32,000 nt of DNA from Demequinaceae bacterium (GTDB lineage Bacteria; Actinomycetota; Actinomycetes; Actinomycetales; Demequinaceae), in NCBI GenBank assembly GCA_965250005.1, contig OZ252279.1, forward strand, positions 720,001 to 752,000. Direction: 5' to 3'. Positions 1 through 16,784 of this stretch are shown here, in pieces (the stretch's first letter is position 1; each line of letters begins with the position of its first letter). The notes below the pieces were generated by a model, which saw nothing but the letters and a program-made list of their open reading frames with translations, did no database searches and was not told the origin of the DNA. The position numbers and the translations under genes are program-made.

Positions 1-40
1 CCACGTCACGGCGAAACTCCTCAGGAAAAACTTTAGGCAT
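1..40 (-). CDS. IS3-family transposase OrfA, first 13 codons only (gene runs off the left edge of the window)
   Basis: The reverse complement of 1-40 reads ATG CCT AAA GTT TTT CCT GAG GAG TTT CGC CGT GAC GTG = MPKVFPEEFRRDV. This is an N-terminus typical of IS3-family OrfA; compare MPAPRKYPQELRDRAIRF of the IS at 15667-16827. A GGAAGGA Shine-Dalgarno (rc of 48-54) lies 7 nt upstream. Confidence 0.6.
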   Translation of the reverse strand, partial: MPKVFPEEFRRDV

Positions 41-90
41 AACAACATCCTTCCACCAAGACCCTCCCAGGTCCCAGAAGTCAGTTGTCA
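1..90 (-). mobile_element. Terminal part of an IS3-family insertion sequence; outer end inferred near nt 90
   Basis: The rc of 61-90 is TGACAACTGACTTCTGGGACCTGGGAGGGTCT. It starts with TGA and carries the same GGAGGGTCT block, at a similar distance from the OrfA ATG, as the orfA-proximal end of the IS at 16800-16827 (TGAATCGCCTCGGGTTTAGTGGAGGGTCT). The exact end cannot be fixed without the other terminus. Confidence 0.5.
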
Positions 91-145
91 CCTATCCCTG
101 CACCAGCCCCTTGGGACTGGATCCCTGGGGTGGGCCGTTCTCGCT

Positions 146-3112
146 TTGGATGAGGACGGCAAGCCGTTTCGCATTGAGCGCATGGGCTCGCGGATATTTG
201 GCACCGGGCGCAAACCGAAGGACAACACGTCGCTTGCGGCGGATCGCACGCAGGCTCGGTCGATGCGCAGGCGCCGCGATCGCTATTTGCGCCGCCGAAA
301 TATGACGATCAACCAGCTCGTCGCGGCTGGTCTCATGCCTGAAGACAAAGCAGCTCGCAAAAAGTTGGTTTCGCTTCACCCCTTCCGGCTACGTTCTGAA
401 GGTCTGCACAGAGAGCTAACGTTGCATGAGCTGGGCCGGGCGCTCTTCCACTTGCAGCAACGTCGGGGGTTCAAAAGCAACCGCAAGGCGGACAAGGGTG
501 ACAGCGATTCGGGAGCCATGAAGACGGCAATTCTGGACACTCAGTCCCGAATTCCTACTGGGGAGACAGTGGGCTCTTATCTTTGGGCACAGATTCTGGA
601 GGGCGAGAGCGCGCGTGCGAGGCGGCGCGGCGAAGGAGCAAAGGCCACCTATGACTTCTACGTGAACCGCCAGATGGTTCAAGAAGAGTTCGACGCATTG
701 TGGGAGTCTCAGAGACGGTTTCACCCCGAAGAGCTCGACCAAGAAGCGTATGACGCAGTCCACTCCGCCATCTTCTTTCAGCGGGCCCTCAAGCGGGTCC
801 AGGTGGGCAAGTGCTTCTTCGAGCGTGAAGAGGAACGGGCGGCCGATGCGTTGCCGTCATCGCAACTGTTCCGGCTGTATCAGGAGGTCAACAACCTCAT
901 GGTCCGCGATCACGATGACGCAACACTGCGCCTTCGACCTCTCACGCGAAACGAGAGGGATAGGGCCATCGAGTACCTCGGCGCGATCAAGGATTCCACC
1001 TTTGCGAAACTCGGCGAGAAGCTCTTCGGCAGGGCGTCTCGGTTTGAATTCAATCTTCAGGCGGGTGAACGCTCCAAGATCAAGGGAAACGACGTCGCCA
1101 GCACTCTCAAGGGGAAGAAGGCATTCGGGCCTTCCTGGTTCACCCTCCCCTTGGATCAGCAAGATGAAATCGCTCAAAGAATTGAAGACGTGGAGTCTGA
1201 AGCGGACGAGGAGGGCCTGGCGTTCTGGCTCCGCGAAGCCCACGGACTATCCCCCGACAACGCGCATCACGTCGCCACCAAAGTGAACTTGCCCGACGGC
1301 CACCGCCGCCTGAGTTCAAAGGCGATCGGCAAAATACTCCCGCACCTCAGTGACGGTTGGGATGAGGAGCATGGTCGCGCGCTCCGGTACAGCGACGCGG
1401 TGGAGCAGGTTGACGAGCCAAACTACCGGAGCCACAGCGAGCAGCACACCGGGGACCTCTTTGAGCATCTCCCCTACTACGGGAAGATTCTCCACCGGTA
1501 CACCGCAGACGTACCACGGCGTGAAGATGAGGCCGTACAGAAAAACACCGACGCGAACGAGTGGGAGTACGGACGCATCGCGAACACCACGGTCCACATC
1601 GGCCTGAACCAGATCCGCAAGGTGGTCAATGCCCTCATCAACGCGTACGGCCTCCCGGCCGAGGTCCACGTTGAAGTAGCCCGCCACCTGGGACAGAGCC
1701 GCGAAGCGCGCATCGAAGACTCAAAGCGGAGGCGCGAAGGGGAGGAGAACAACGAACGGATCCGCGAGATTCTTGAGGATCTGGGAGTCAAGGACAATTA
1801 TGACAACCGCACGCGCGTGAAGTTGTTTGAGGAGCTTGCACCGCTTAGCCACCGGTGCATATTCACTGGCATCCCAATAGCGCGTGCGCGCATGTTCACC
1901 AACGACTACCAGGTGGATCACGTGTTGCCGTATTCGCGGACTCTGGACGACAGTTACGGCAACAAGATCTTGATTCACCACACCGCGAATCAGTTCAAGG
2001 GAAACTACAGCCCGTTTGAGGCGTATGGCGGCAGCGAGGACTGGGACCAGATTCTGGACCGCGCGGAGGCGCTTCCGAAAAACAAGTACAGCCGCTTCAG
2101 CGAAAACGCCATGGAGCGCTACGAGGCGGGTGCCCAGGACTTCATCGCTCGGCAGCTCACGGACACTGCGTACCTGGCCCGGGTGACCAAGATGTACCTA
2201 GCGAGCATTGTTGACCCGAATCACGTTTTCGCGATGCCCGGCCGGCTCACCGGAATGCTACGAGCCAAGTGGGGGCTCAATGGGATCCTGTCGGATTCCG
2301 GGAAGAAGGAGCGCACCGATCACCGCCATCACGCCATTGACGGTGTGGTTATCGCACTTACCGACCGCAGCATGCTTAAGCGAGTTACGGACGCCAACAA
2401 ACGCGCCAGCGAGCAAGGGATGGACCGGCTACTCAAAGAGTTTGAGCTCCCTTGGGACGGCTTCATGGAAGAAATCCAAGCCAAGACGGACGCCATCGTG
2501 ATCTCTCACAAACCTGACCACGGCGCTGGAGGTCAACTGCACGAGGAGACCGCCTATGGAGTGAATGAAGGTCCGGATATGGAGGGTCGTTACCTTACCC
2601 ACCTCGGAGGCAATGACGCGAAGTGGCGGCGGGTCATTCCCATTTTTCGCGAGAGAGAATCACCGGACTCAGCACCGCCTTTCAAAGCGTATATCGGTGG
2701 ATCAAACTACTGCGTCGAGATTGTTCGGCAGTCAACAGGCAAGTGGTCAGGTGAGGTCATCTCTACATTTCAAGCAAACCAGCGCGAATACCAGGCATTC
2801 ATGACGGACCGGAGCCGCTTTTTGCACCATAGCTTCTCGGGGCTTCCGCTAGTAATGCGCTTGATGGCGGATGATGCCATTGCAATTGAGGAGGATGGAG
2901 AGCGCAGGATTATGCGCGTATGCAAAATTGACTCAGCTGGCCCCATGTACTTTGCGGGCCATCTGGAAGGCAACGTAGCTGCGCGTAGCCGGGACAAGTC
3001 GGACTCGTTCTCAATGTTGAAGAAGAGCGCCAATCCTCTTGCGCTTCTGTCTGCACGCCGGGTATTTGTCGACCCACTGGGAAATATCCTTGACCCTGGG
3101 TTTCACGGCTAG
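146..3112 (+). CDS. cas9: Type II-C Cas9, 5'-disrupted: RuvC-I motif lacks the catalytic Asp and there is no ATG/GTG start; possible pseudogene or RuvC-dead variant
   Basis: 988-aa ORF from TTG146.
- Arg-rich bridge helix: RTQARSMRRRRDRYLRRR.
- RuvC-II: VHVEVARHL.
- HNH: YQVDHVLPYSRTLDDSYGNKILIHHTANQFKGN.
- RuvC-III: RTDHRHHAIDGVVIA.
Homology continues upstream of 146 in the same frame to about nt 110 (PLGTGSLGWAVLAL). It is followed directly by cas1 and cas2, with no csn2 or cas4. Confidence 0.9.
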   Translation: MDEDGKPFRIERMGSRIFGTGRKPKDNTSLAADRTQARSMRRRRDRYLRRRNMTINQLVAAGLMPEDKAARKKLVSLHPFRLRSEGLHRELTLHELGRALFHLQQRRGFKSNRKADKGDSDSGAMKTAILDTQSRIPTGETVGSYLWAQILEGESARARRRGEGAKATYDFYVNRQMVQEEFDALWESQRRFHPEELDQEAYDAVHSAIFFQRALKRVQVGKCFFEREEERAADALPSSQLFRLYQEVNNLMVRDHDDATLRLRPLTRNERDRAIEYLGAIKDSTFAKLGEKLFGRASRFEFNLQAGERSKIKGNDVASTLKGKKAFGPSWFTLPLDQQDEIAQRIEDVESEADEEGLAFWLREAHGLSPDNAHHVATKVNLPDGHRRLSSKAIGKILPHLSDGWDEEHGRALRYSDAVEQVDEPNYRSHSEQHTGDLFEHLPYYGKILHRYTADVPRREDEAVQKNTDANEWEYGRIANTTVHIGLNQIRKVVNALINAYGLPAEVHVEVARHLGQSREARIEDSKRRREGEENNERIREILEDLGVKDNYDNRTRVKLFEELAPLSHRCIFTGIPIARARMFTNDYQVDHVLPYSRTLDDSYGNKILIHHTANQFKGNYSPFEAYGGSEDWDQILDRAEALPKNKYSRFSENAMERYEAGAQDFIARQLTDTAYLARVTKMYLASIVDPNHVFAMPGRLTGMLRAKWGLNGILSDSGKKERTDHRHHAIDGVVIALTDRSMLKRVTDANKRASEQGMDRLLKEFELPWDGFMEEIQAKTDAIVISHKPDHGAGGQLHEETAYGVNEGPDMEGRYLTHLGGNDAKWRRVIPIFRERESPDSAPPFKAYIGGSNYCVEIVRQSTGKWSGEVISTFQANQREYQAFMTDRSRFLHHSFSGLPLVMRLMADDAIAIEEDGERRIMRVCKIDSAGPMYFAGHLEGNVAARSRDKSDSFSMLKKSANPLALLSARRVFVDPLGNILDPGFHG

Positions 3113-3118
3113 ATCGCC

Positions 3119-4042
3119 ATGATCGGCCAGGTTGTCGAGATCGTTGAGTCCGACCGCTACCTGTCCCTGGAATACGGAAACATGCTTGTCCGCTCCAAGG
3201 ATCAGGTGCTGGGCAGGATAGCTCTCGACGACATATTGGCCGTTGTCGTCAACCCTCACGGCGCTACCTTGTCAGCCGGAATCATGGCCGAGTTAGCGAC
3301 TCGCAACATTCCGCTAGTTATTGCCGGGAAACATTTCAAACCGGTGGCCGTGCTGATGCCTCTAGTTGGGAACTTTGAGGTCTCAGCCCGCATCGCAGCC
3401 CAAGCAACGGCCTCCGTCCCCACCAAGAAGCAGGCGTGGAAGCAGGTGGTCCAGAGCAAGATCACCATGCAGGCGATGGCCTTGGAAACCACAGGTGGAG
3501 ATGCTGGGCGAATGTGGGACATGATTCCGCAAGTCAGGTCGGGCGACGTGGGTAACCTTGAGGCGCAGGCGGCTCGCCACTATTGGAAACGGATGTACGG
3601 GGAGTCCTTCCGCCGTGACCGCGACCAGCCGGGTATCAACGCGCTTCTCAATTACGGATACGCAGTGATTCGAGCGGCGACGGCGCGGGCCATCGCGGCG
3701 TCCGGGCTCCATCCCAGTCTGGGGATTCACCATGTGAACCCGCTCGACACGATGCGCCTGGTTGACGACCTCATGGAACCGTATCGGCCTCTAATCGACT
3801 TGCGTGTCTACGGAATCCTCAACACCGGGGTTATTGATGTCGTTCCTGAAACCAAGAAGATGCTCGTGGCAGTCCTCTCCACCGATATAGCGACGGAGGT
3901 TGGGTCTAGCCCGGTCTCGATGGCCATGTTCAGAACTGCACAATCGCTCGTGAAGCTCTTCAAGGGCGAGCGAGAGACTCTGGAGCTTCCAGACCAACGA
4001 ACGCGTGAGTCGCTTCCGGATCTGGCTGAAGCGTTCATATGA
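3119..4042 (+). CDS. cas1: Cas1 integrase (type II)
   Basis: 307 aa. Motifs INALLNYGYAVIRAA, GIHHVNPLDTMRLVDDLMEPYRPLID. Starts 6 nt after the cas9 stop. Confidence 0.93.
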   Translation: MIGQVVEIVESDRYLSLEYGNMLVRSKDQVLGRIALDDILAVVVNPHGATLSAGIMAELATRNIPLVIAGKHFKPVAVLMPLVGNFEVSARIAAQATASVPTKKQAWKQVVQSKITMQAMALETTGGDAGRMWDMIPQVRSGDVGNLEAQAARHYWKRMYGESFRRDRDQPGINALLNYGYAVIRAATARAIAASGLHPSLGIHHVNPLDTMRLVDDLMEPYRPLIDLRVYGILNTGVIDVVPETKKMLVAVLSTDIATEVGSSPVSMAMFRTAQSLVKLFKGERETLELPDQRTRESLPDLAEAFI

Positions 4043-4368
4043 GCGAGTTATCGGGGTATCGACTGATGTGGATCGTGACGCTGTTTGACCTCCCGACTCT
4101 TACAAAAGTGCAGCGCCGGGAAGCGAGCATCTATCGTAAGGAGCTCCTGAAGCGAGGGTTCCAGATGGCCCAATTGTCCGTCTACTTCAAGTATTGTCGG
4201 GACAAAGAGCAAGCTCAGGTCGTCGTAAGCGACGTCGTCTCAATCGTGCCCGCTGGTGGCCGCGTGGACGTATTATTGATCACGGACAAGCAGTACGCGA
4301 ATATTGCGACAATCCGTGGAGATCGGAAGGTCAATCGTGAGAATCCATCGCAACTCAGCCTCTTCTAG
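4039..4368 (+). CDS. cas2: Cas2 (type II)
   Basis: 109 aa. The N-terminus YRLMWIVTLFDLPT is typical of the type II Cas2 beta1 strand. ATGA overlap with the cas1 stop. Confidence 0.88.
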   Translation: MSELSGYRLMWIVTLFDLPTLTKVQRREASIYRKELLKRGFQMAQLSVYFKYCRDKEQAQVVVSDVVSIVPAGGRVDVLLITDKQYANIATIRGDRKVNRENPSQLSLF

Positions 4369-4396
4369 CCGCGTGCGCTACGGTTCTCGAGCGACC

Positions 4397-4440
4397 GATC
4401 TGGTTGTTTACCCTGGTAAACCAGGGTAAACAACCAGATC
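4397..4440. terminator. Perfect 44-nt palindrome (20-bp stem, TAAA loop) between cas2 and the CRISPR array; candidate bidirectional terminator or insulator
   Basis: GATCTGGTTGTTTACCCTGG-TAAA-CCAGGGTAAACAACCAGATC, with no mismatch. It lies 28 nt after the cas2 stop and 1 nt before the first repeat. There is no U-tract on either strand. Confidence 0.5.
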
Positions 4441-4441
4441 C

Positions 4442-5530
4442 AGTCTATCGCTCTGGGAAACGAGCCCTGGCCGCAACCGGGTGGCGACTACTGTGCGTTA
4501 GCGACAAAGTCTATCGCTCTGGGAAACGAGCCCTGGCCGCAACTTCTGGCCTGCCGTTGAAGGTAAAACGCCTAGTCTATCGCTCTGGGAAACGAGCCCT
4601 GGCCGCAACTCGAGGTCGTCGTGCCACCAGGCGCAACCGAGTCTATCGCTCTGGGAAACGAGCCCTGGCCGCAACTCATCCACTACTTCCCCATTCCCTA
4701 TGTGAGTCTATCGCTCTGGGAAACGAGCCCTGGCCGCAACTGATAAACCATCGCGCTCTGGATCCTCGAAAGTCTATCGCTCTGGGAAACGAGCCCTGGC
4801 CGCAACTCATAAGTAGCGGCGGCGGGATGCCGCACAAGTCTATCGCTCTGGGAAACGAGCCCTGGCCGCAACACGCCCGGTTGCGATTGTGTGACGGGCT
4901 ACAGTCTATCGCTCTGGGAAACGAGCCCTGGCCGCAACACACGTCTCCTAGTGTTGCGTTAATCATCAAGTCTATCGCTCTGGGAAACGAGCCCTGGCCG
5001 CAACTGGTTCGACACTCAGGCGAACGTCCTCCAAGTCTATCGCTCTGGGAAACGAGCCCTGGCCGCAACTCAACCATAGGCGGGGGGTGGTACCGCGTTA
5101 GTCTATCGCTCTGGGAAACGAGCCCTGGCCGCAACTTAGGAAAGTCCGTGTGGGACAAGGACCGCAGTCTATCGCTCTGGGAAACGAGCCCTGGCCGCAA
5201 CTTCGAGCGTTGCCCGGCCTTCTGCGTCGTAGTCTATCGCTCTGGGAAACGAGCCCTGGCCGCAACTGGGGACCGTTGTAGCCGCTGGTAAGTTCGAGTC
5301 TATCGCTCTGGGAAACGAGCCCTGGCCGCAACCCTTCGCCATTCACAGTTCCGCACTGATTTAGTCTATCGCTCTGGGAAACGAGCCCTGGCCGCAACTC
5401 CTTCGACACAATGGAGCGCATCGAGAATAGTCTATCGCTCTGGGAAACGAGCCCTGGCCGCAACGTACAAACAGTCATGGCGGAGATTGATTCCAGTCTA
5501 TCGCTCTGGGAAACGAGCCCTGGCCGCAAC
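4442..5530 (-). CRISPR. CRISPR array: 17 identical 36-bp repeats and 16 spacers (13 of 30 bp, 3 of 29 bp)
   Basis: Plus-strand repeat: AGTCTATCGCTCTGGGAAACGAGCCCTGGCCGCAAC. Repeat starts: 4442, 4508, 4574, 4640, 4705, 4771, 4837, 4903, 4969, 5034, 5100, 5166, 5231, 5297, 5363, 5429, 5495. The minus-strand reading GTTGCGGCCAGGGCTCGTTTCCCAGAGCGATAGACT has the canonical type II GTTG... start. The strand call is therefore inferred, convergent with the cas genes as in many II-C loci. Confidence 0.97.
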
Positions 5531-5593
5531 CTTACAAAGGCGCGGAACCCTTGTTGTGCGGTTGCGGCCAGGGCTCGGCGGGCACACCTAAGC
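5531..5593 (-). ncRNA. Candidate tracrRNA (anti-repeat region); boundaries unknown
   Basis: 5561-5577 (GTTGCGGCCAGGGCTCG on the plus strand) is a perfect inverted copy of 17 nt of the repeat. A minus-strand RNA would carry CGAGCCCUGGCCGCAAC, complementary to the first 17 nt of the minus-strand crRNA repeat. Upstream, GCUUAGG (rc of 5587-5593) can pair with repeat nt 22-28 (CCAGAGC), giving a bulge plus upper-stem layout. The 30-nt tail contains the hairpin ACAAGGG-UUCCGCG-CCUUUGU. No other anti-repeat was seen in the window. Confidence 0.45.
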
Positions 5594-5633
5594 CTCCATC
5601 GTGCCTTGCGCTCCAAGTAGAGCGGGGCGAAGG

Positions 5634-5707
5634 TGGGCCAGGTGGGGCTCGAACCCACGACCGACGGATTATGAGTCCGCTGCTCTAACCGGCTGAGCTA
5701 CTGGCCC
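5634..5707 (-). tRNA. tRNA with CAU anticodon (elongator Met, or Ile2 if lysidine-modified); CCA not fully encoded
   Basis: The rc reads GGGCCAGTAGCTCAGCCGGTTAGAGCAGCGGACTCATAATCCGTCGGTCGTGGGTTCGAGCCCCACCTGGCCCA. It folds as a cloverleaf with acceptor GGGCCAG/CTGGCCC, anticodon loop CTCATAA and T-loop TTCGAGC. The anticodon stem lacks the three G-C pairs of an initiator tRNA. Confidence 0.9.
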
Positions 5708-5750
5708 TTGCGTGCAAGGTACAGGCTAGTCGGCTATGCGGTATCCGGTT

Positions 5751-6985
5751 TCACGATGCTGCGATTGGTCCAGGCCGCGCAATCACGACAGTCGCGGTAA
5801 ACGAATAGGCGCCGACGGCGGCCACGGCGAGAGCCTGCTCACCCAAGAGTCCCGCGCCTGCGCCGTCGATGAGTCCGATTCCTTCAGTGCGATCGCCGAT
5901 GATGACCCGCCCGAACACGCCTACGAGCAAGAATCCCACGGCGCCGCTCCACAGATGGATGGCGACTACGTCGCTTGCGTCCTCGTACCCGATCCGGTAC
6001 TTGAGTCGGACCGCTAGGTTCACCGTGACGGCTGCAACCAGGCCCACGAGGAAGGATGCGAAGGGATCAAGGAAGCCTGCCCCTGGCGTCACGGCCACGA
6101 GGCCCGCGATGATTCCGGATACGGTTCCTGCCGAGCTGACGGTTCCCGCGAGGCGCTTCTCGAGCAGCATCCAGCCTGCGCCGCCGCCCACGGCTCCCAG
6201 GTGTGCCGAAAGCACCGCTGAGGCCGCCAGACCGTCCGCCGACATGGCGAAGCCACCGACGAGTCCGAGCCAGCCCACCCACGCGAGTCCCGCGCCCACG
6301 AGCACCAACGGACGGTTGTGGGACGCGGAGGGTGCATCGTGCGGGCCGTTGCGCGGCCCAAGGACCCACGCGAGCGCGAGTGCCGATGCGCCCACGCACA
6401 CGGTGAGGGCTGCGCCCGCGCCGTAGTCGAACACCCCGCGCGCCGCGAGCCACCCTCCCCCGAGTGTCCAGTGAAACGCGACGGGGAGCACCAGCACGGA
6501 CCACGCTGCAAGCACGCCGAGCATCGGCCCAAAGCGCATGCGGCCTGCAGCGACGCCGGTCATTGCGACGGCCGCGACCACGGCGACCATGAGTGTGAAG
6601 ACTACGAACGCAACGGCGGGCAATCCGGCGGGCTCACGTCGGACTCTCCCACGCCCCCGAGGCCAATAAATTGGAAGTCCCCGATGAGCGCGCCGTCGCC
6701 GCCAAAGGCGAACGTGAAGCCCAGTACGATCCAGGTGATTGAAACCACGCCGATCGCGCCAACGGCGAACATCATCATCGCGACAGCGCTCGTCGCTCGG
6801 CTCCGGCTGGCATTGATCGCGCCCAGCCCCACCGCAAGCAACAGCACGAGGAACGCGGAGCCAAGCACCCACGCGGTGGCAGCGAGGTCGGTCTCCACGG
6901 CTGCTCCAGGTGGTCGGTGCCGCCATAAGGCGGCGGCTTCGGGACTGATGAGTCTATCCCTGGGACTCTCGCAATCGAGTGGCAA
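5751..6985 (-). pseudogene. Amt/MEP-family ammonium-transporter-like gene split by a frameshift near 6630-6650
   Basis: The N-terminal Amt-like part (DLAATAWVLGSAFLVLLLAVGLG...WIVLGFTFAFGG) is in the frame of ORF 6602..6985. The rest is in the frame of ORF 5751..6926: HWTLGGGWLAARGVFDYGAGA, SHNRPLVLVGAGLAWVGWLG, IIAGLVAVTPGAGF, DVVAIHLWSGAVG. The likely true start is GTG near 6899. Confidence 0.6.
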
Positions 6986-11942: not shown

Positions 11943-13208
11943 CTAGTTGCTGGGCCCGCAGTACTTGTGATGCCAGTCGTGCGCGGACTTGTCCGTGAGC
12001 GACGCGACCTGGTCCACGGCGACGCGCAGACGGCCGGCGTCGTCCGACGCGGCTCTCCACGCCTCAGCAAAGTGAGTGTCGAGCGCCTCCTCGCCGCGGT
12101 CAATGATCGCGGGAACCAGCGCCGCGAGCCGCTCGCGCTGCTGCCGGTAGACGGGCGACTTCTCGCGTGGCGCCATCAAAAAGTGAACTGCGATTCCTTT
12201 GAGCACCAGGATCTCAGCGGCAGTGTCGGCGGGAATCACCAGTGAGGCGTGATGCCGCGTGAGCGGCCCGTCGCCGTGCTCTTCGCGGGTCGCATCAATG
12301 ACAGCCCCGCAAAAGCGCCCGATCAGTTGGCTCGTGAGGTCCTTGAGGCCCGCGAGCGCGCGATGGGATCCGTCGTACTCATCCATCCATGACGACTCGG
12401 ACCGCAACCGCTCGAGCGCCTCGAGCAGCTCGGCCTCGTCCCCCCGGCCGTACCATTCGCGTGCGTGCGCGGCGATTTCTCGCCCTTGGCCGGCGTCGCG
12501 GAGAACGCTCAGCGAAACGTGCCGGTGCACCACGGAATCCTCAACGTCGTGCACAGAGTAGCTAATGTCGTCGGCAAGGTCCATCACTTGCGCTTCAAAC
12601 GCGACGGATTTCTCCGCCGTGCCCCCTCGGAGCCACGCGAACACGGGCAGGTCGTCGTCATAGACTCCGAACTTTCGCGTCGCGCGCCCGTCAGGCCTGC
12701 TGGGCGCGTCCGGTTCTCCCCACGGATACTTGAGGCTCGCGTCCAGGACAGCACGCGTCAGGTTAAGGCCGACGCTCTCCCCCGTGTCAGGATTGACGGA
12801 TTTGGGCTCAAGACGAGTCAGCAGGCGCAGCGTCTGGGCGTTGCCCTCGAAGCCGCCAATGGCCTTGGCGACCTCGTCGAGCGCGATCTCACCGTTGTGC
12901 CCGAAGGGTGGGTGGCCTAGGTCGTGAGCGAGGCACGCGGCGTCCACCACGTCCGGGTCGGCGCCTAGGGTCTTGCCCAGCCCGCGTCCCACCTGCGCCA
13001 CCTCAAGCGTGTGCGTGAGGCGGGTGCGGACAAAGTCGCCGGTGCCGGCGCCAAGCACTTGCGTCTTGGCGCCCAATCTTCGCAGCGCGCTCGAGTGGAC
13101 GATCCGAGCCTGGTCCCGCTCGAATGGAGTTCGATTGGCGCGCTTGGGCGGTTCGGGGACCCAGCGCTCAACATCTGCTTCGGTGTATCCGGGGGGCGCT
13201 GTGGTCAC
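11943..13208 (-). CDS. dgt: dGTP triphosphohydrolase-like HD-domain protein
   Basis: 421 aa. Motifs RTPFERDQARIVHSSALRRLGAKTQV, RLTHTLEVAQVGR, LAHDLGHPPFGHNGE. Classic position next to dnaG. Confidence 0.9.
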   Translation of the reverse strand: MTTAPPGYTEADVERWVPEPPKRANRTPFERDQARIVHSSALRRLGAKTQVLGAGTGDFVRTRLTHTLEVAQVGRGLGKTLGADPDVVDAACLAHDLGHPPFGHNGEIALDEVAKAIGGFEGNAQTLRLLTRLEPKSVNPDTGESVGLNLTRAVLDASLKYPWGEPDAPSRPDGRATRKFGVYDDDLPVFAWLRGGTAEKSVAFEAQVMDLADDISYSVHDVEDSVVHRHVSLSVLRDAGQGREIAAHAREWYGRGDEAELLEALERLRSESSWMDEYDGSHRALAGLKDLTSQLIGRFCGAVIDATREEHGDGPLTRHHASLVIPADTAAEILVLKGIAVHFLMAPREKSPVYRQQRERLAALVPAIIDRGEEALDTHFAEAWRAASDDAGRLRVAVDQVASLTDKSAHDWHHKYCGPSN

Positions 13209-13666: not shown

Positions 13667-14365
13667 TCAGCCTAGCTTCACTAGCGCATCGCGGTCGGTG
13701 ACGCTGATCGATCGATACTCGAGCGTGACCAGTCCGTCGTCTTCAAGACCGCGCAGGATCTTGTTGACCGATGGCCTGCGGGCGCCAAGCATTGCGGCGA
13801 CCGTACTCTGGGTGAGTTGCACGGGTCCGTCGGCGCTCTCGTCCAGCAGCAGGCGTGCCACCTGCTTGGTGAGGCTCTGCCCCAGCAGTCCGCGCACGCG
13901 GTTCTGGCTGGTGGCGAGCCTCATGGCGATGGACGACATCCACTGACGTGCGAGGTTCGGGTTGCGCTGGATGAGTTTCTGGAAGGCTGCGTCGCTAAGA
14001 TACAGGTACTGAACGTCCGTGAGCGCGCGCGCCGTGTAGGGCATGGGCATGCCGAGCAGCAGCTGGATGTCGCCGTCCACGTCGCCGGCCCTGAGCACGT
14101 GAATGATTGCCCGGGCGCGACCCGCCCCCACCGACAGCGCGACCGTGCCTTCGCGCAGAATCCACACGCCGTCGAACGTCTCTCCCTCGCGGCAAATGAC
14201 ACCGTCGCGGTCGATGGTTCGCGGCTCGAGCACGTCGGCAAACGCCGCTACATCCTCGGGCCCGAGCGGCGCGCCCTCTCCCCTACCGACGCAACGTGCG
14301 ACCCAGGCTGCCTCGCGCATCGTCCCCGCGGAGCCATCTGTCATTTGCATCGCGGTCATATCCAT
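13667..14365 (-). CDS. Crp/Fnr-family transcriptional regulator
   Basis: 232 aa. cNMP-binding-like beta-barrel segment (GETFDGVWILREGTVALS...LRAGDVDGD) and a C-terminal HTH (LTQSTVAAMLGARRPSVNKILRGLEDDGLV). The start codon is uncertain; several in-frame Met codons are available. Confidence 0.8.
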   Translation of the reverse strand: MDMTAMQMTDGSAGTMREAAWVARCVGRGEGAPLGPEDVAAFADVLEPRTIDRDGVICREGETFDGVWILREGTVALSVGAGRARAIIHVLRAGDVDGDIQLLLGMPMPYTARALTDVQYLYLSDAAFQKLIQRNPNLARQWMSSIAMRLATSQNRVRGLLGQSLTKQVARLLLDESADGPVQLTQSTVAAMLGARRPSVNKILRGLEDDGLVTLEYRSISVTDRDALVKLG

Positions 14366-14392
14366 ATGTCAATCATGTCATCTTGCTGACAT
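14366..14392. promoter_or_regulatory. ATGTCA hexamer triplet including an 18-bp palindrome ATGTCA-N6-TGACAT; candidate Crp/Fnr-type operator
   Basis: ATGTCA at 14366-14371 and 14375-14380; inverted TGACAT at 14387-14392. It lies in the divergent intergenic region between the Crp/Fnr regulator gene and the membrane-protein gene at 14455. The layout matches the TGTGA-N6-TCACA class of sites. Confidence 0.4.
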
Positions 14393-15681: not shown

Positions 15682-16449
15682 TTAGTGGAGGGCGGGTTCT
15701 CCCAGGAGCGGTTGCTCGTGGGGTGTGTTCTCACGGTAGTACAGGTCTTCCTTCTCGATTGGTGTGAGGTATCCAATCGAGGAGTGGAGGCGGTTGTCGT
15801 TGAACCAGTGGACCCACGACAGCGTCGCGAGTTCGAGCTCGTCGCTGTGATGGATCACGCTATCGATGTTCTCGCCGGCGCGGGAGCGGACCCATAACGC
15901 CATCTCGAGGGCGTCGAGTGGCAGTTCGGTGGGCATTCGGTTCGTGGTGCGCCAGCCGACGATTCGCCGGGAGAACACGTCGGTCACGAACGCAGTGGAC
16001 GCCATCCCAGACCAGGTCGGCACGTAGGTGAAGTCCACGACCCACAGCTCATTGGGACATTCGGCACGGAAGTTGCGCTTCACGTGATCCGGTGCTCGGT
16101 TTGCTGCCGGATCGGGACGGGTCGTGACGAACTGTTTGCCGCGACGCACCCCGCGAAGCCCCTGAGCCCGCATGAGACGCTCCACCGTGCAGCGGGCGGT
16201 CACGACACCGTCACGCTTGAGTAGGCGCCACACCTTTCGCGCACCCGAGATCCCGCGACCCTTCGTGCGGTCCCAGAAGACCCGCTCAATGTGTTCGCGC
16301 AACTCTTGATCACGCACCGTCCGCTGCGAGATGGCACGCGTTTTGAACGCGTAGTAAGTAGACGGGGCGATCTTGACTCCGTGCTCGGTGAGCACCCGGC
16401 AGATCGGCTCGACCCCGAAACGAACACGATGCTCGTCGATGAAGTTCAC
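15682..16449 (-). CDS. IS3-family transposase OrfB, truncated catalytic core (in-frame internal deletion)
   Basis: 255 aa. It has the first D (WVVDFTYVPT) and second D (VIHHSD). HHSD then joins directly to ELELATLSWVHWFNDNRLHSSIGYLTP. The roughly 70-aa segment that normally carries the DDE glutamate (RGSQY...DN..ES) is missing. Confidence 0.85.
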   Translation of the reverse strand: MNFIDEHRVRFGVEPICRVLTEHGVKIAPSTYYAFKTRAISQRTVRDQELREHIERVFWDRTKGRGISGARKVWRLLKRDGVVTARCTVERLMRAQGLRGVRRGKQFVTTRPDPAANRAPDHVKRNFRAECPNELWVVDFTYVPTWSGMASTAFVTDVFSRRIVGWRTTNRMPTELPLDALEMALWVRSRAGENIDSVIHHSDELELATLSWVHWFNDNRLHSSIGYLTPIEKEDLYYRENTPHEQPLLGEPALH

Positions 16450-16784
16450 TAAAACGGAAGTCGCGGGTCGAGCTCCCGCGCGAAGAAACTTGACGCCGCC
16501 AACAAAATATCGTTGGCACGCTTCAACTCACGATTCTCACGCTCGAGATCTTTGATACGGGCCGCGCCGACCGTGGCGATGCCCCTGACCTCGCCGGCGT
16601 CAATGCGCGCCTGTTTCACCCACCCACGCAACCTGTCCGGAATCACCCCCGTGCGATGACCGATACGGATCACCGCCGCATTCAACGACAACGACACCTC
16701 CTGGCTCATCGCCTCACTTACGAACCGAATGGCCCGATCCCGCAACTCCTGCGGATACTTCCTCGGTGCTGGCATGACTCCCAT
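16449..16784 (-). CDS. IS3-family transposase OrfA (HTH)
   Basis: 111 aa. MGVMPAPRKYPQELRDRAIRFV..., with leucine-zipper-like IKDLERENRELKRANDILLAASSFFA before the frameshift region. Confidence 0.88.
   Translation of the reverse strand: MGVMPAPRKYPQELRDRAIRFVSEAMSQEVSLSLNAAVIRIGHRTGVIPDRLRGWVKQARIDAGEVRGIATVGAARIKDLERENRELKRANDILLAASSFFARELDPRLPF

Follow-up and report, generated by a model that had tools for sequence, protein, structure and literature searches.

[quoted passage not shown] Does this copy belong to a tracrRNA, the headline reading of the initial annotation, or does it pair in cis with the neighboring repeat? The second reading, that of a cis-pairing leader element acting in processing, is favored by a conserved geometry, by covariation of the stem and by its match to the published concept of a leader:extra-repeat hairpin. 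The inverted half-repeat is probably a cis anti-repeat that folds onto the spacer-less first repeat and silences it.

The window, meaning the whole 32,000-nucleotide stretch analyzed, opens with the end of an IS3-family element (1–109, minus strand), whose boundary is set at the onset of cas9 homology. An IS3-like orfA start (MPKVFPEEFRRDV) lies at ~41 and reads leftwards. The element abuts a 5'-truncated cas9 of type II-C (110–3112, plus strand). The IS3-like insertion cost this gene its first ~13 codons and with them the RuvC-I Asp; relatives begin M..YRLGLDLGTGSLGWAV, and the window reads ..LSLHQP|LGTGSLGWAV. Since cas9 is disrupted, any function of the inverted half-repeat is probably no longer exercised in this genome. 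The genes for cas1 (3119–4042) and cas2 (4039–4368), both on the plus strand, agree in size and order with the Pfam-annotated Cas1 and Cas2 of relatives. A perfect 21-bp palindrome at 4397–4440, assigned to neither strand, adjoins the cas2-proximal repeat; its position is kept in relatives, its sequence is not. The locus thus has type II-C organization, with a minimal cas9–cas1–cas2 set, an array opposite to the cas genes and repeat-embedded promoters predicted by sequence.

The array itself (4442–5530) comprises 17 identical 36-nt repeats spaced 65–66 nt apart, with GTTGCGGCCAGGGCTCGTTTCCCAGAGCGATAGACT as the crRNA sense. Repeats are reversed relative to cas9 in all 60+ loci compared, and the crRNAs are placed on the minus strand because the anti-repeat polarity of the relatives' tracrRNA requires it. 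Each repeat in the window is closed by a −10-like TAGACT, and TANNNT stands at the 3' end, in crRNA sense, of 54 of the 62 distinct repeats of this Cas9 family, which fits the repeat-embedded promoters of II-C systems (PMC12080349). Read on the minus strand, repeat 17 (5495–5530) becomes the first-transcribed and oldest repeat, an extra repeat without a spacer of its own (concept from PMC12080349), and the cas2-proximal repeat becomes the last-transcribed one, at the acquisition end. In this sense the inverted half-repeat precedes repeat 17 by 30 nt. Further upstream is a tRNA-Met gene (5632–5707, minus strand) that is co-oriented with crRNA transcription and ends 54 nt short of the anti-repeat arm; any read-through into the array probably comes from this gene.

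The inverted copy occupies 5561–5577 (GTTGCGGCCAGGGCTCG; CGAGCCCUGGCCGCAAC in minus-strand RNA). As originally described, it matches the reverse complement of the final 17 nt of each plus-strand repeat without a single difference. All 17 positions therefore pair with repeat nt 1–17; the corresponding complementarity in relatives is 20/21. Eighteen matches to the 17-mer occur in the window, 17 of them in the array, and 5561–5577 is the sole plus-strand copy. Chance was rightly regarded as an improbable source, with only ~0.29 matches expected in the 32-kb window even when three mismatches are allowed. Exactly 30 nt (5531–5560, minus strand) separate the copy from the end of the terminal repeat at 5530, and these would serve as the guide of an extraneous crRNA (ecrRNA). 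The description of this distance as exactly one spacer length holds in the window but is only approximate across the five lineages that carry the element, where it measures 27, 30, 30, 30 and 31 nt.

The complementarity runs beyond 17 nt, giving arms at 5514–5537 and 5554–5577 of 24 nt each that are 92% complementary. In minus-strand RNA the cis anti-repeat forms the 5' arm of the hairpin and nt 1–17 of the extra repeat (5530 down to 5514) the 3' arm, and the 30 nt form the apical part. The inner hairpin proposed for the 30 nt (ACAAGGGU/GCCUUUGU) is present in the minimum-energy fold as 8 bp, two of them G-U. A long stem is predicted on either strand, at −59.7 kcal/mol for the minus and −56.7 kcal/mol for the plus strand (z of about −5). 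Across the hairpin lineages, folding gives −50 to −60 kcal/mol and z values of −5 to −7. The bulge and 7-nt upper stem (GCUUAGG:CCAGAGC) that had been drawn next to the arm, by contrast, fall away: this stem contains one mismatch and one wobble, is missing from the minimum-energy fold, and involves sequence 5' of the arm that is not conserved among relatives. In a predicted cofold with the cognate tracrRNA the long hairpin survives, leaving only the distal part of the repeat to the tracrRNA.

Could the element nevertheless be a tracrRNA, whether minimal, non-canonical or fused to the pre-crRNA, with its 17-nt anti-repeat directing Cas9 loading and processing by RNase III? Its complementarity to the repeat segment kept in mature crRNAs is perfect, and, like the canonical II-C tracrRNAs of N. 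meningitidis, C. jejuni and this clade, it carries, on the crRNA strand, an anti-repeat to the repeat's 5' part. The hairpin in the 30 nt also contains an ACAAGG motif, a faint echo of the clade nexus TAACAAGG. A descent of the 30 nt from that nexus was considered and rejected, as the likeness is too weak and the distance from the anti-repeat is wrong. Only 27–31 nt precede the first repeat, and the parts that make up a canonical tracrRNA are absent at the element: an "AAGG" nexus directly behind the anti-repeat is missing, and there are no 3' hairpins, no promoter of its own and no terminator. A covariance model of the clade tracrRNA (R1) gave no match at the element, even with E ≤ 10 and filters switched off, and found no other site in the window; Rfam likewise gave no tracrRNA match. 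The arm matches the repeat exactly, unlike true tracrRNA anti-repeats, which mismatch at fixed positions; the arm therefore derives from the repeat and not from a tracrRNA gene.

Relatives bear most directly on this point. In 10/10 actinobacterial relatives a canonical tracrRNA is found on the minus strand just upstream of cas9, at 24–140 nt, and three of the ten contigs hold cas9 and the element together. This tracrRNA has its own promoter, an anti-repeat of ~30 nt, the TAACAAGG nexus and a terminator with a U-tract. What the initial annotation had named as refuting, a longer anti-repeat with a canonical tail elsewhere, is thus present in relatives that also carry the element; the element itself has a cis rather than a trans geometry and coexists there with the real tracrRNA. 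With this, the reading as a tracrRNA is largely refuted, and we regard it as very improbable. Projected onto the window, the canonical tracrRNA site lies beyond the IS3-like insertion. The initial annotation had also suggested that the real tracrRNA was lost upstream of cas9 when the IS inserted; of this, the location is borne out by the position of the tracrRNA in relatives.

Inverted half-repeats 27–31 nt past the cas-distal repeat occur in five lineages, namely the window, L081, L090, L087–89 and L154, and are absent from the ~40 other II-C loci compared. Predicted pairing between the upstream 100 nt and repeat nt 1–22 reaches ~−40 kcal/mol in the hairpin lineages, against a background of 0 to −24 kcal/mol in those ~40 loci. 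Proteobacterial loci with 33–45% Cas9 identity, the sole relatives among the matches listed in a Cas9-alignment search of genome contigs, served as negative background. A metagenome search with a single Cas9 protein returned no match. The loose DNA pattern CTGGCCGCAAC-N24-40-TTGCGGCC retrieved two genuine cases, L113 and L154, among the at least 120 metagenome stretches listed, and L113 is the same contig as L089.

Such a copy might be no more than a functionless scar: at the array's old end, an ancient inverted duplication or a fold-back would have placed half a repeat on the far side of the oldest spacer, where it simply persisted. A spacing near one spacer length fits such an event, the 30 nt are themselves partly palindromic, and the dnaG neighborhood shared by four of the five lineages means that common descent explains presence. 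Persistence in its present form is harder to reconcile with a scar. Each of the five lineages has kept both arms intact despite Cas9 identities of 51–62%, whereas the loop and outer flank have diverged past easy alignment, and the element is also retained in L087, where the neighborhood is different (recG). The extra repeat is unmutated in the hairpin lineages, although 60% of II-C extra repeats in general are already mutated (PMC12080349). The arm also follows the repeat: position 17 is G in 17/17 window repeats and faces C in the arm, and elsewhere it is A and faces U. Extensions of the stem into the 30 nt covary as well. In the alignment of all five, 91.5% of the cells are paired, and three pairs, that at position 17 among them, are altered on both sides. 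These statistics are thin, given that there are only five lineages, that L081 and L090 are close, and that values as high as those observed came up in 3 to 10 of 500 shuffles. Constraint on the repeat itself keeps most stem positions invariant. Taken with these observations, a scar appears unlikely.

The same alignments bear on whether the inverted half-repeat acts as DNA, for instance as a cruciform or protein site that marks the array boundary, blocks recombination or contacts Cas1–Cas2. The two 24-bp arms do form a near-perfect DNA palindrome, and the second palindrome at the other array end is conserved in position. G-U wobbles, however, preserve pairing in the minus-strand RNA only, by six to one, acquisition in II-C systems takes place at the opposite end (PMC12080349), and no conserved motif is seen outside the repeat-derived arm. 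A role at the DNA level is accordingly improbable.

The surroundings of the element suggest where the RNA would come from. In 5/5 hairpin lineages a co-oriented gene (tRNA-Met, PIN, RecG or a 637-aa ORF) ends 25–75 nt upstream, whereas in lineages lacking the hairpin the next called gene outside the array lies on the opposite strand and points away. The latter lineages rely on a different strategy from among those published: the extra repeat of Demequina L083 is heavily mutated, that of L213 carries G1>C, and Cryobacterium L217 has a hairpin within the guide region. From gene orientation only, we infer that transcription enters the element.

This arrangement would also suit a stem that is mainly a terminator or insulator of the upstream gene, with the first repeat as its descending arm by chance and any blocking of tracrRNA irrelevant. 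The stem is GC-rich and very stable, it is followed by UUUC in the window, and upstream terminators are one published II-C strategy (PMC12080349). But four of the five lineages have no U-tract, the stem running into CCAGAG instead, and a scan for Rho-independent terminators across 4300–5800 returned no site, the stem being present but without a proper U-tract. The upstream gene varies by lineage, but the array keeps its hairpin, whose arm tracks the repeat sequence. In L081 and L090, moreover, a separate GC hairpin stands directly after the PIN gene. Termination as the main purpose is doubtful, and a terminator role of the stem in general is uncertain.

Read on the plus strand, the 30 nt come first and the 5' part of a canonical repeat comes next, as in a mature type II crRNA. 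A scaRNA-like orphan unit of 30 nt plus 17–21 nt of repeat could then pair with tracrRNA and direct Cas9 to a target in the host. Ahead of it on that strand there is neither a promoter nor a −10-like element, the putative guide is self-complementary and differs between lineages, and elsewhere in the window its 13-nt 3' seed matches no better than chance. An orphan crRNA of this kind is hardly credible.

For the cis anti-repeat, we propose the following course. RNA would enter the array from upstream, in the window from tRNA-Met, whose gene lies 54 nt away. Transcribed first, the anti-repeat arm would then snap onto nt 1–17 of the extra repeat as these emerge. The product would be a hairpin of 22–26 bp, with the 30 nt otherwise usable as a guide enclosed in its loop and apical stem. 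Such a hairpin would hide the part of the repeat with which the tracrRNA pairs and that Cas9 holds. No ecrRNA would then arise from flank sequence, the array would be insulated from read-through, or both. The stem may in addition stop read-through transcripts as a terminator, or be cut from them as an RNase III site. Transcription across the region, the hairpin in vivo and the blocking of tracrRNA and Cas9 are all presumed steps; that the hairpin would prevent tracrRNA hybridization and ecrRNA production is a proposal made from thermodynamic modeling.

Should the proposed mechanism hold, ecrRNAs would be suppressed by pairing between upstream sequence and repeat in more than II-A and type VI systems; such suppression would extend to II-C, where it would have arisen as well. 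The sequestered II-C repeat would then be the oldest one, which could simply have decayed; that it is sequestered instead would argue for real selection against ecrRNAs or read-through. Sister lineages offer a natural comparison, since some have the hairpin and others a mutated repeat or a hairpin in the guide, and the difference correlates with the orientation of the neighboring gene. For annotation, an anti-repeat adjacent to an array is not necessarily a tracrRNA, and pipelines that choose the most perfect anti-repeat would mis-call this locus.

Among known systems, the closest parallel is the II-A leader:extra-repeat hairpin, which blocks ecrRNA formation (Liao et al. 2022, as related in PMC12080349 and PMC13187072). 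As far as these accounts describe it, the partner of the first transcribed repeat is in both cases the sequence directly before it; this pairing competes with the tracrRNA and prevents a flank-guided extraneous crRNA, a role that is only proposed here. Judged against the same accounts, the II-C element differs in sequestering the oldest repeat rather than the acquisition site, and prioritizing the newest spacer is impossible at this end of the array. Each repeat has its own predicted promoter, so a classical leader transcript is lacking. What pairs with the repeat is here a literal inverted copy of 17–21 nt of the repeat, set about one spacer length away, so that the would-be guide is looped out too. 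In type VI systems (Cas13), a conserved inhibitory leader–repeat hairpin has been shown experimentally to block effector binding and ecrRNA (Migur et al. 2026, PMC13187072). There, too, upstream RNA pairs with the first repeat (PMC13187072), but the effector and repeat are different, no tracrRNA takes part, and the hairpin described here is predicted only.

Within type II-C, three strategies against ecrRNAs have been described: a mutated extra repeat, an upstream Rho-independent terminator and a hairpin that traps the guide (Feussner et al. 2025, PMC12080349). The present element addresses the same problem, from the same position upstream of the first and oldest repeat, in the same clade of systems (PMC12080349). 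Two of these strategies appear in sister lineages of the window, the mutated repeat in L083 and the guide hairpin in L217, and the window's 30 nt likewise carry an inner "guide" hairpin. The main stem, however, is exactly what was reported absent from II-C: more than 650 systems were surveyed with no enrichment of upstream:extra-repeat hairpins (PMC12080349), whereas here 17–21 perfect pairs are predicted with an extra repeat that is unmutated. We lean, if only slightly, towards the view that an actinobacterial II-C subclade has evolved a fourth way of silencing the spacer-less first repeat, with a literal cis anti-repeat about one spacer length upstream drawing that repeat and its would-be guide into one long hairpin, and that within one Cas9 clade this alternates with repeat decay and guide hairpins according to read-in from the neighboring gene.

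At the left end of the window lies a plus-strand type II-C cas9 (110–3112), followed by cas1 (3119–4042), cas2 (4039–4368) and a CRISPR array of 17 identical 36-nt repeats (4442–5530, in the plus-strand coordinates of the cas genes; repeat read on the plus strand, AGTCTATCGCTCTGGGAAACGAGCCCTGGCCGCAAC). The end of an IS3-family element occupies positions 1–109, with its orfA (MPKVFPEEFRRDV) reading leftwards out of the window. The Cas9 proteins of relatives begin M..YRLG(L/I)DLGTGSLGWAV, whereas in the window ..LSLHQP runs directly into LGTGSLGWAV; this comparison indicates that the first ~13 cas9 codons, including that for the RuvC-I aspartate, are missing. The public gene call P0001 (1058 aa) continues into the IS. 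The insertion also parted cas9 from the tracrRNA and promoter expected upstream of it, and has probably already disabled the CRISPR system in this genome. It looks recent, because all 17 repeats are still identical. A second IS3-like element (15682–16784, minus strand) contains an ALIL pseudoknot, an IS3-family frameshift element, with the Rfam match (16363–16490) positioned between overlapping ORFs of 111 and 255 aa, both on the minus strand.

Adjoining the cas2-proximal repeat, at the last-transcribed, acquisition end of the array, is a perfect 21-bp palindrome (4397–4440). Every actinobacterial lineage has a strong palindrome at this position, differing in sequence (L081, ~12432–12472; L083, 12349–12394; L087, L090, L213 and L217, immediately ahead of the first plus-strand repeat). 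L213 and L217 show a U-tract after it in the crRNA sense, and a short (C)GATC(Y) motif stands beside the repeat in five of seven lineages. The palindrome may be a terminator for transcripts from the last-repeat promoter, which would otherwise run antisense into cas2, or may be part of an acquisition leader. Related loci vary in other ways. The P0027 lineage (L213, L214 and L215; gene 6101–7357 in L213) encodes an apparent Cas1–Cas2 fusion, one 418-aa protein in which Pfam domains of both are present, and cas1 of L212 (9448–10333) is split into ORFs of 202 and 97 aa. The Demequina L083 array (14174–14370) carries spacer CGCGGCGGCATCAGTCACGGGGATGACGT twice, flanking the repeat variant GCTTTGGG, and the third spacer from the cas2-proximal end is duplicated in L089 relative to L087 and L088.

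Past the last repeat, 30 nt (5531–5560) precede GTTGCGGCCAGGGCTCG (5561–5577), a perfect reverse complement of the final 17 nt of the plus-strand repeat. As the initial annotation had noticed, this copy is exact; it is also the only plus-strand one in 32 kb, out of 18 matches in total, with a chance expectation of 0.29 even allowing three mismatches. Complementarity reaches 24-nt arms with two mismatches. Folding of the region, which the annotation had called for, gave a long predicted stem on both strands (−59.7 and −56.7 kcal/mol, z ~ −5); the additional 7-nt upper stem it had drawn does not appear in the minimum-energy fold and lacks conservation. Between the arm and the tRNA-Met gene (5632–5707, minus strand), within 5594–5631, lies a small minus-strand hairpin, CGCTC-TACTTG-GAGCG, which could serve the tRNA itself as a signal for 3′ processing or termination.

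The half-repeat had been read as either a tracrRNA anti-repeat or a cis-pairing leader. Two sets of loci were compared: at least about 60 proteobacterial II-C loci (Cas9 identity 33–45%) and ten actinobacterial loci found by exact protein look-up (46–62%). Among the matches listed, the strongest inverted repeat copy lies within the few hundred bases upstream of cas9 in nearly all loci of both sets. All ten actinobacterial loci have at this site a textbook minus-strand tracrRNA gene, with a TATTGACA-type promoter, a ~30-nt anti-repeat bearing a few fixed mismatches to the repeat, a conserved TAACAAG(G/T) nexus and a GC hairpin followed by a U-tract. This polarity means that crRNAs are read from the minus strand, against the direction of the cas genes, in agreement with the published II-C picture (PMC12080349). 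Read this way, TANNNT (TAGACT in the window) forms the 3′ end of 54 of 62 distinct repeats, which fits repeat-embedded −10 boxes. A covariance model built from the ten actinobacterial tracrRNAs and run over the whole window with filters off matched the array repeats alone, none with a tracrRNA tail, and an Rfam search of the window gave no tracrRNA match. The tracrRNA site of this locus, by these searches, would therefore lie outside the window, beyond the IS.

Searching beyond the cas-distal repeat located the element in at least four further lineages: L081 (Cas9 identity 62%, spacing 30 nt, arm 20/21), L090 (51%, 30 nt, 20/21), L087–L089 (55%, 31 nt, 20/21) and L154, a metagenome fragment with cas9 off the contig (27 nt, arm of 17 plus a G-U extension). 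In the Logan assemblies L082 (5600–5700), L086 (5580–5680) and L216 (~12390), the array is reduced to a single repeat; these have the same cas9 as longer JGI/ENA contigs, and the palindrome and the inverted half-repeat are retained on either side of the remaining repeat. The reduction is almost certainly assembly collapse, not biology. The upstream 100 nt is predicted to pair with repeat nt 1–22 at ~ −40 kcal/mol in element-bearing lineages and at background level (0 to −24 kcal/mol) in about 40 other II-C loci, among them the closely related Demequina (L083), L213 and Cryobacterium (L217). The element is not the tracrRNA, since all three element-bearing lineages with contigs reaching upstream of cas9 retain a canonical one there as well. 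At positions where the true tracr anti-repeat departs from the repeat, the arm follows the repeat exactly, which indicates the repeat, not the tracr gene, as its source or coevolving partner. Of the two original readings, the tracrRNA is rejected and the cis-pairing leader favoured.

Aligning the five lineages, the window included, revealed conserved stems with a divergent loop and outer flank. Pairing holds in 91.5% of the cells of a 26-pair structure, compared with 27–47% when the partner is slid. Three pairs changed on both sides across these lineages, two of which are close. One of the three involves repeat position 17, which is G in 17/17 window repeats, facing C in the arm, and A facing U in the other lineages; stem extensions into the 30 nt covary too (C-G/U-A and A-U/C-G). 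Given the small sample and the two close lineages, these patterns are supportive, not conclusive, of selection on pairing. A neutral scar of inverted duplication would account for a spacing close to one spacer length and for the partial palindrome in the 30 nt, but fits poorly with the compensatory changes and with arms left intact although Cas9 is 51–62% identical among lineages. G-U wobbles that keep pairing number six in the minus-strand RNA versus one in the plus-strand RNA, and the minus-strand fold is the more stable in four of five lineages. The wobble asymmetry, together with acquisition at the opposite array end, disfavours action at the DNA level.

The repeat transcribed first in a type II array is spacer-less and can yield an extraneous crRNA (ecrRNA) with a flank-derived guide (Feussner et al. 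2025, PMC12080349; Migur et al. 2026, PMC13187072). New spacers in II-C enter at the last repeat, each repeat contains a promoter, and the extra repeat is the oldest; three II-C strategies against ecrRNA are described, namely mutation of the extra repeat, a terminator upstream of it and a hairpin within the would-be guide (PMC12080349, PMC13187072). By its position, repeat 17 of the window (5495–5530) is the extra repeat in that published sense. The extra repeat is unmutated in all five lineages with the hairpin, and a co-oriented gene ends 25–75 nt upstream in each: tRNA-Met in the window, a PIN gene in L081 and L090, recG in L087 and a 637-aa ORF in L154. In the three lineages without it (L083, L213 and L217), the next called gene outside the array is on the other strand, pointing away, and each shows another published strategy. 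The first ~12 nt of the L083 extra repeat are heavily mutated with the −10 box kept, that of L213 carries G1>C, and L217 has a 9+6-bp hairpin inside the guide region. Both L083 and L087 have recG and fakA-like genes beyond the array, with a cellulase gene between array and recG in L083. The association of hairpin with co-oriented neighbour (5/5 versus 0/3) is suggestive, the lineages not being phylogenetically independent. A pure terminator or insulator is a plausible reading of the element, yet no U-tract follows the stem in four of the five lineages, and a terminator scan of positions 4300–5800 found none.

We consider it reasonably likely that the element is an upstream:extra-repeat hairpin. 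One arm is repeat nt 1–17/21 copied literally in inverted orientation, and the 27–31-nt loop corresponds to the would-be guide, with an inner stem of its own in the window and L087. A plus-strand orphan crRNA or scaRNA-like unit is highly improbable: it would be without a promoter, its guide is self-complementary and variable, and no seed match occurs elsewhere in the window. As for the upstream:extra-repeat hairpin, it persists in a predicted cofold with the cognate tracrRNA, which is left the distal repeat part alone. Because the arm would be transcribed ahead of the repeat, cis folding should be kinetically favoured; the hairpin would form on the transcript and then block tracrRNA or Cas9. 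Type II-A and type VI systems block ecrRNA by a leader:first-repeat hairpin, and in II-C an upstream:extra-repeat hairpin was reported as not found (PMC12080349, PMC13187072). The window element would be a hairpin of the II-A and type VI kind, present in a II-C subclade and, as such, new for II-C.
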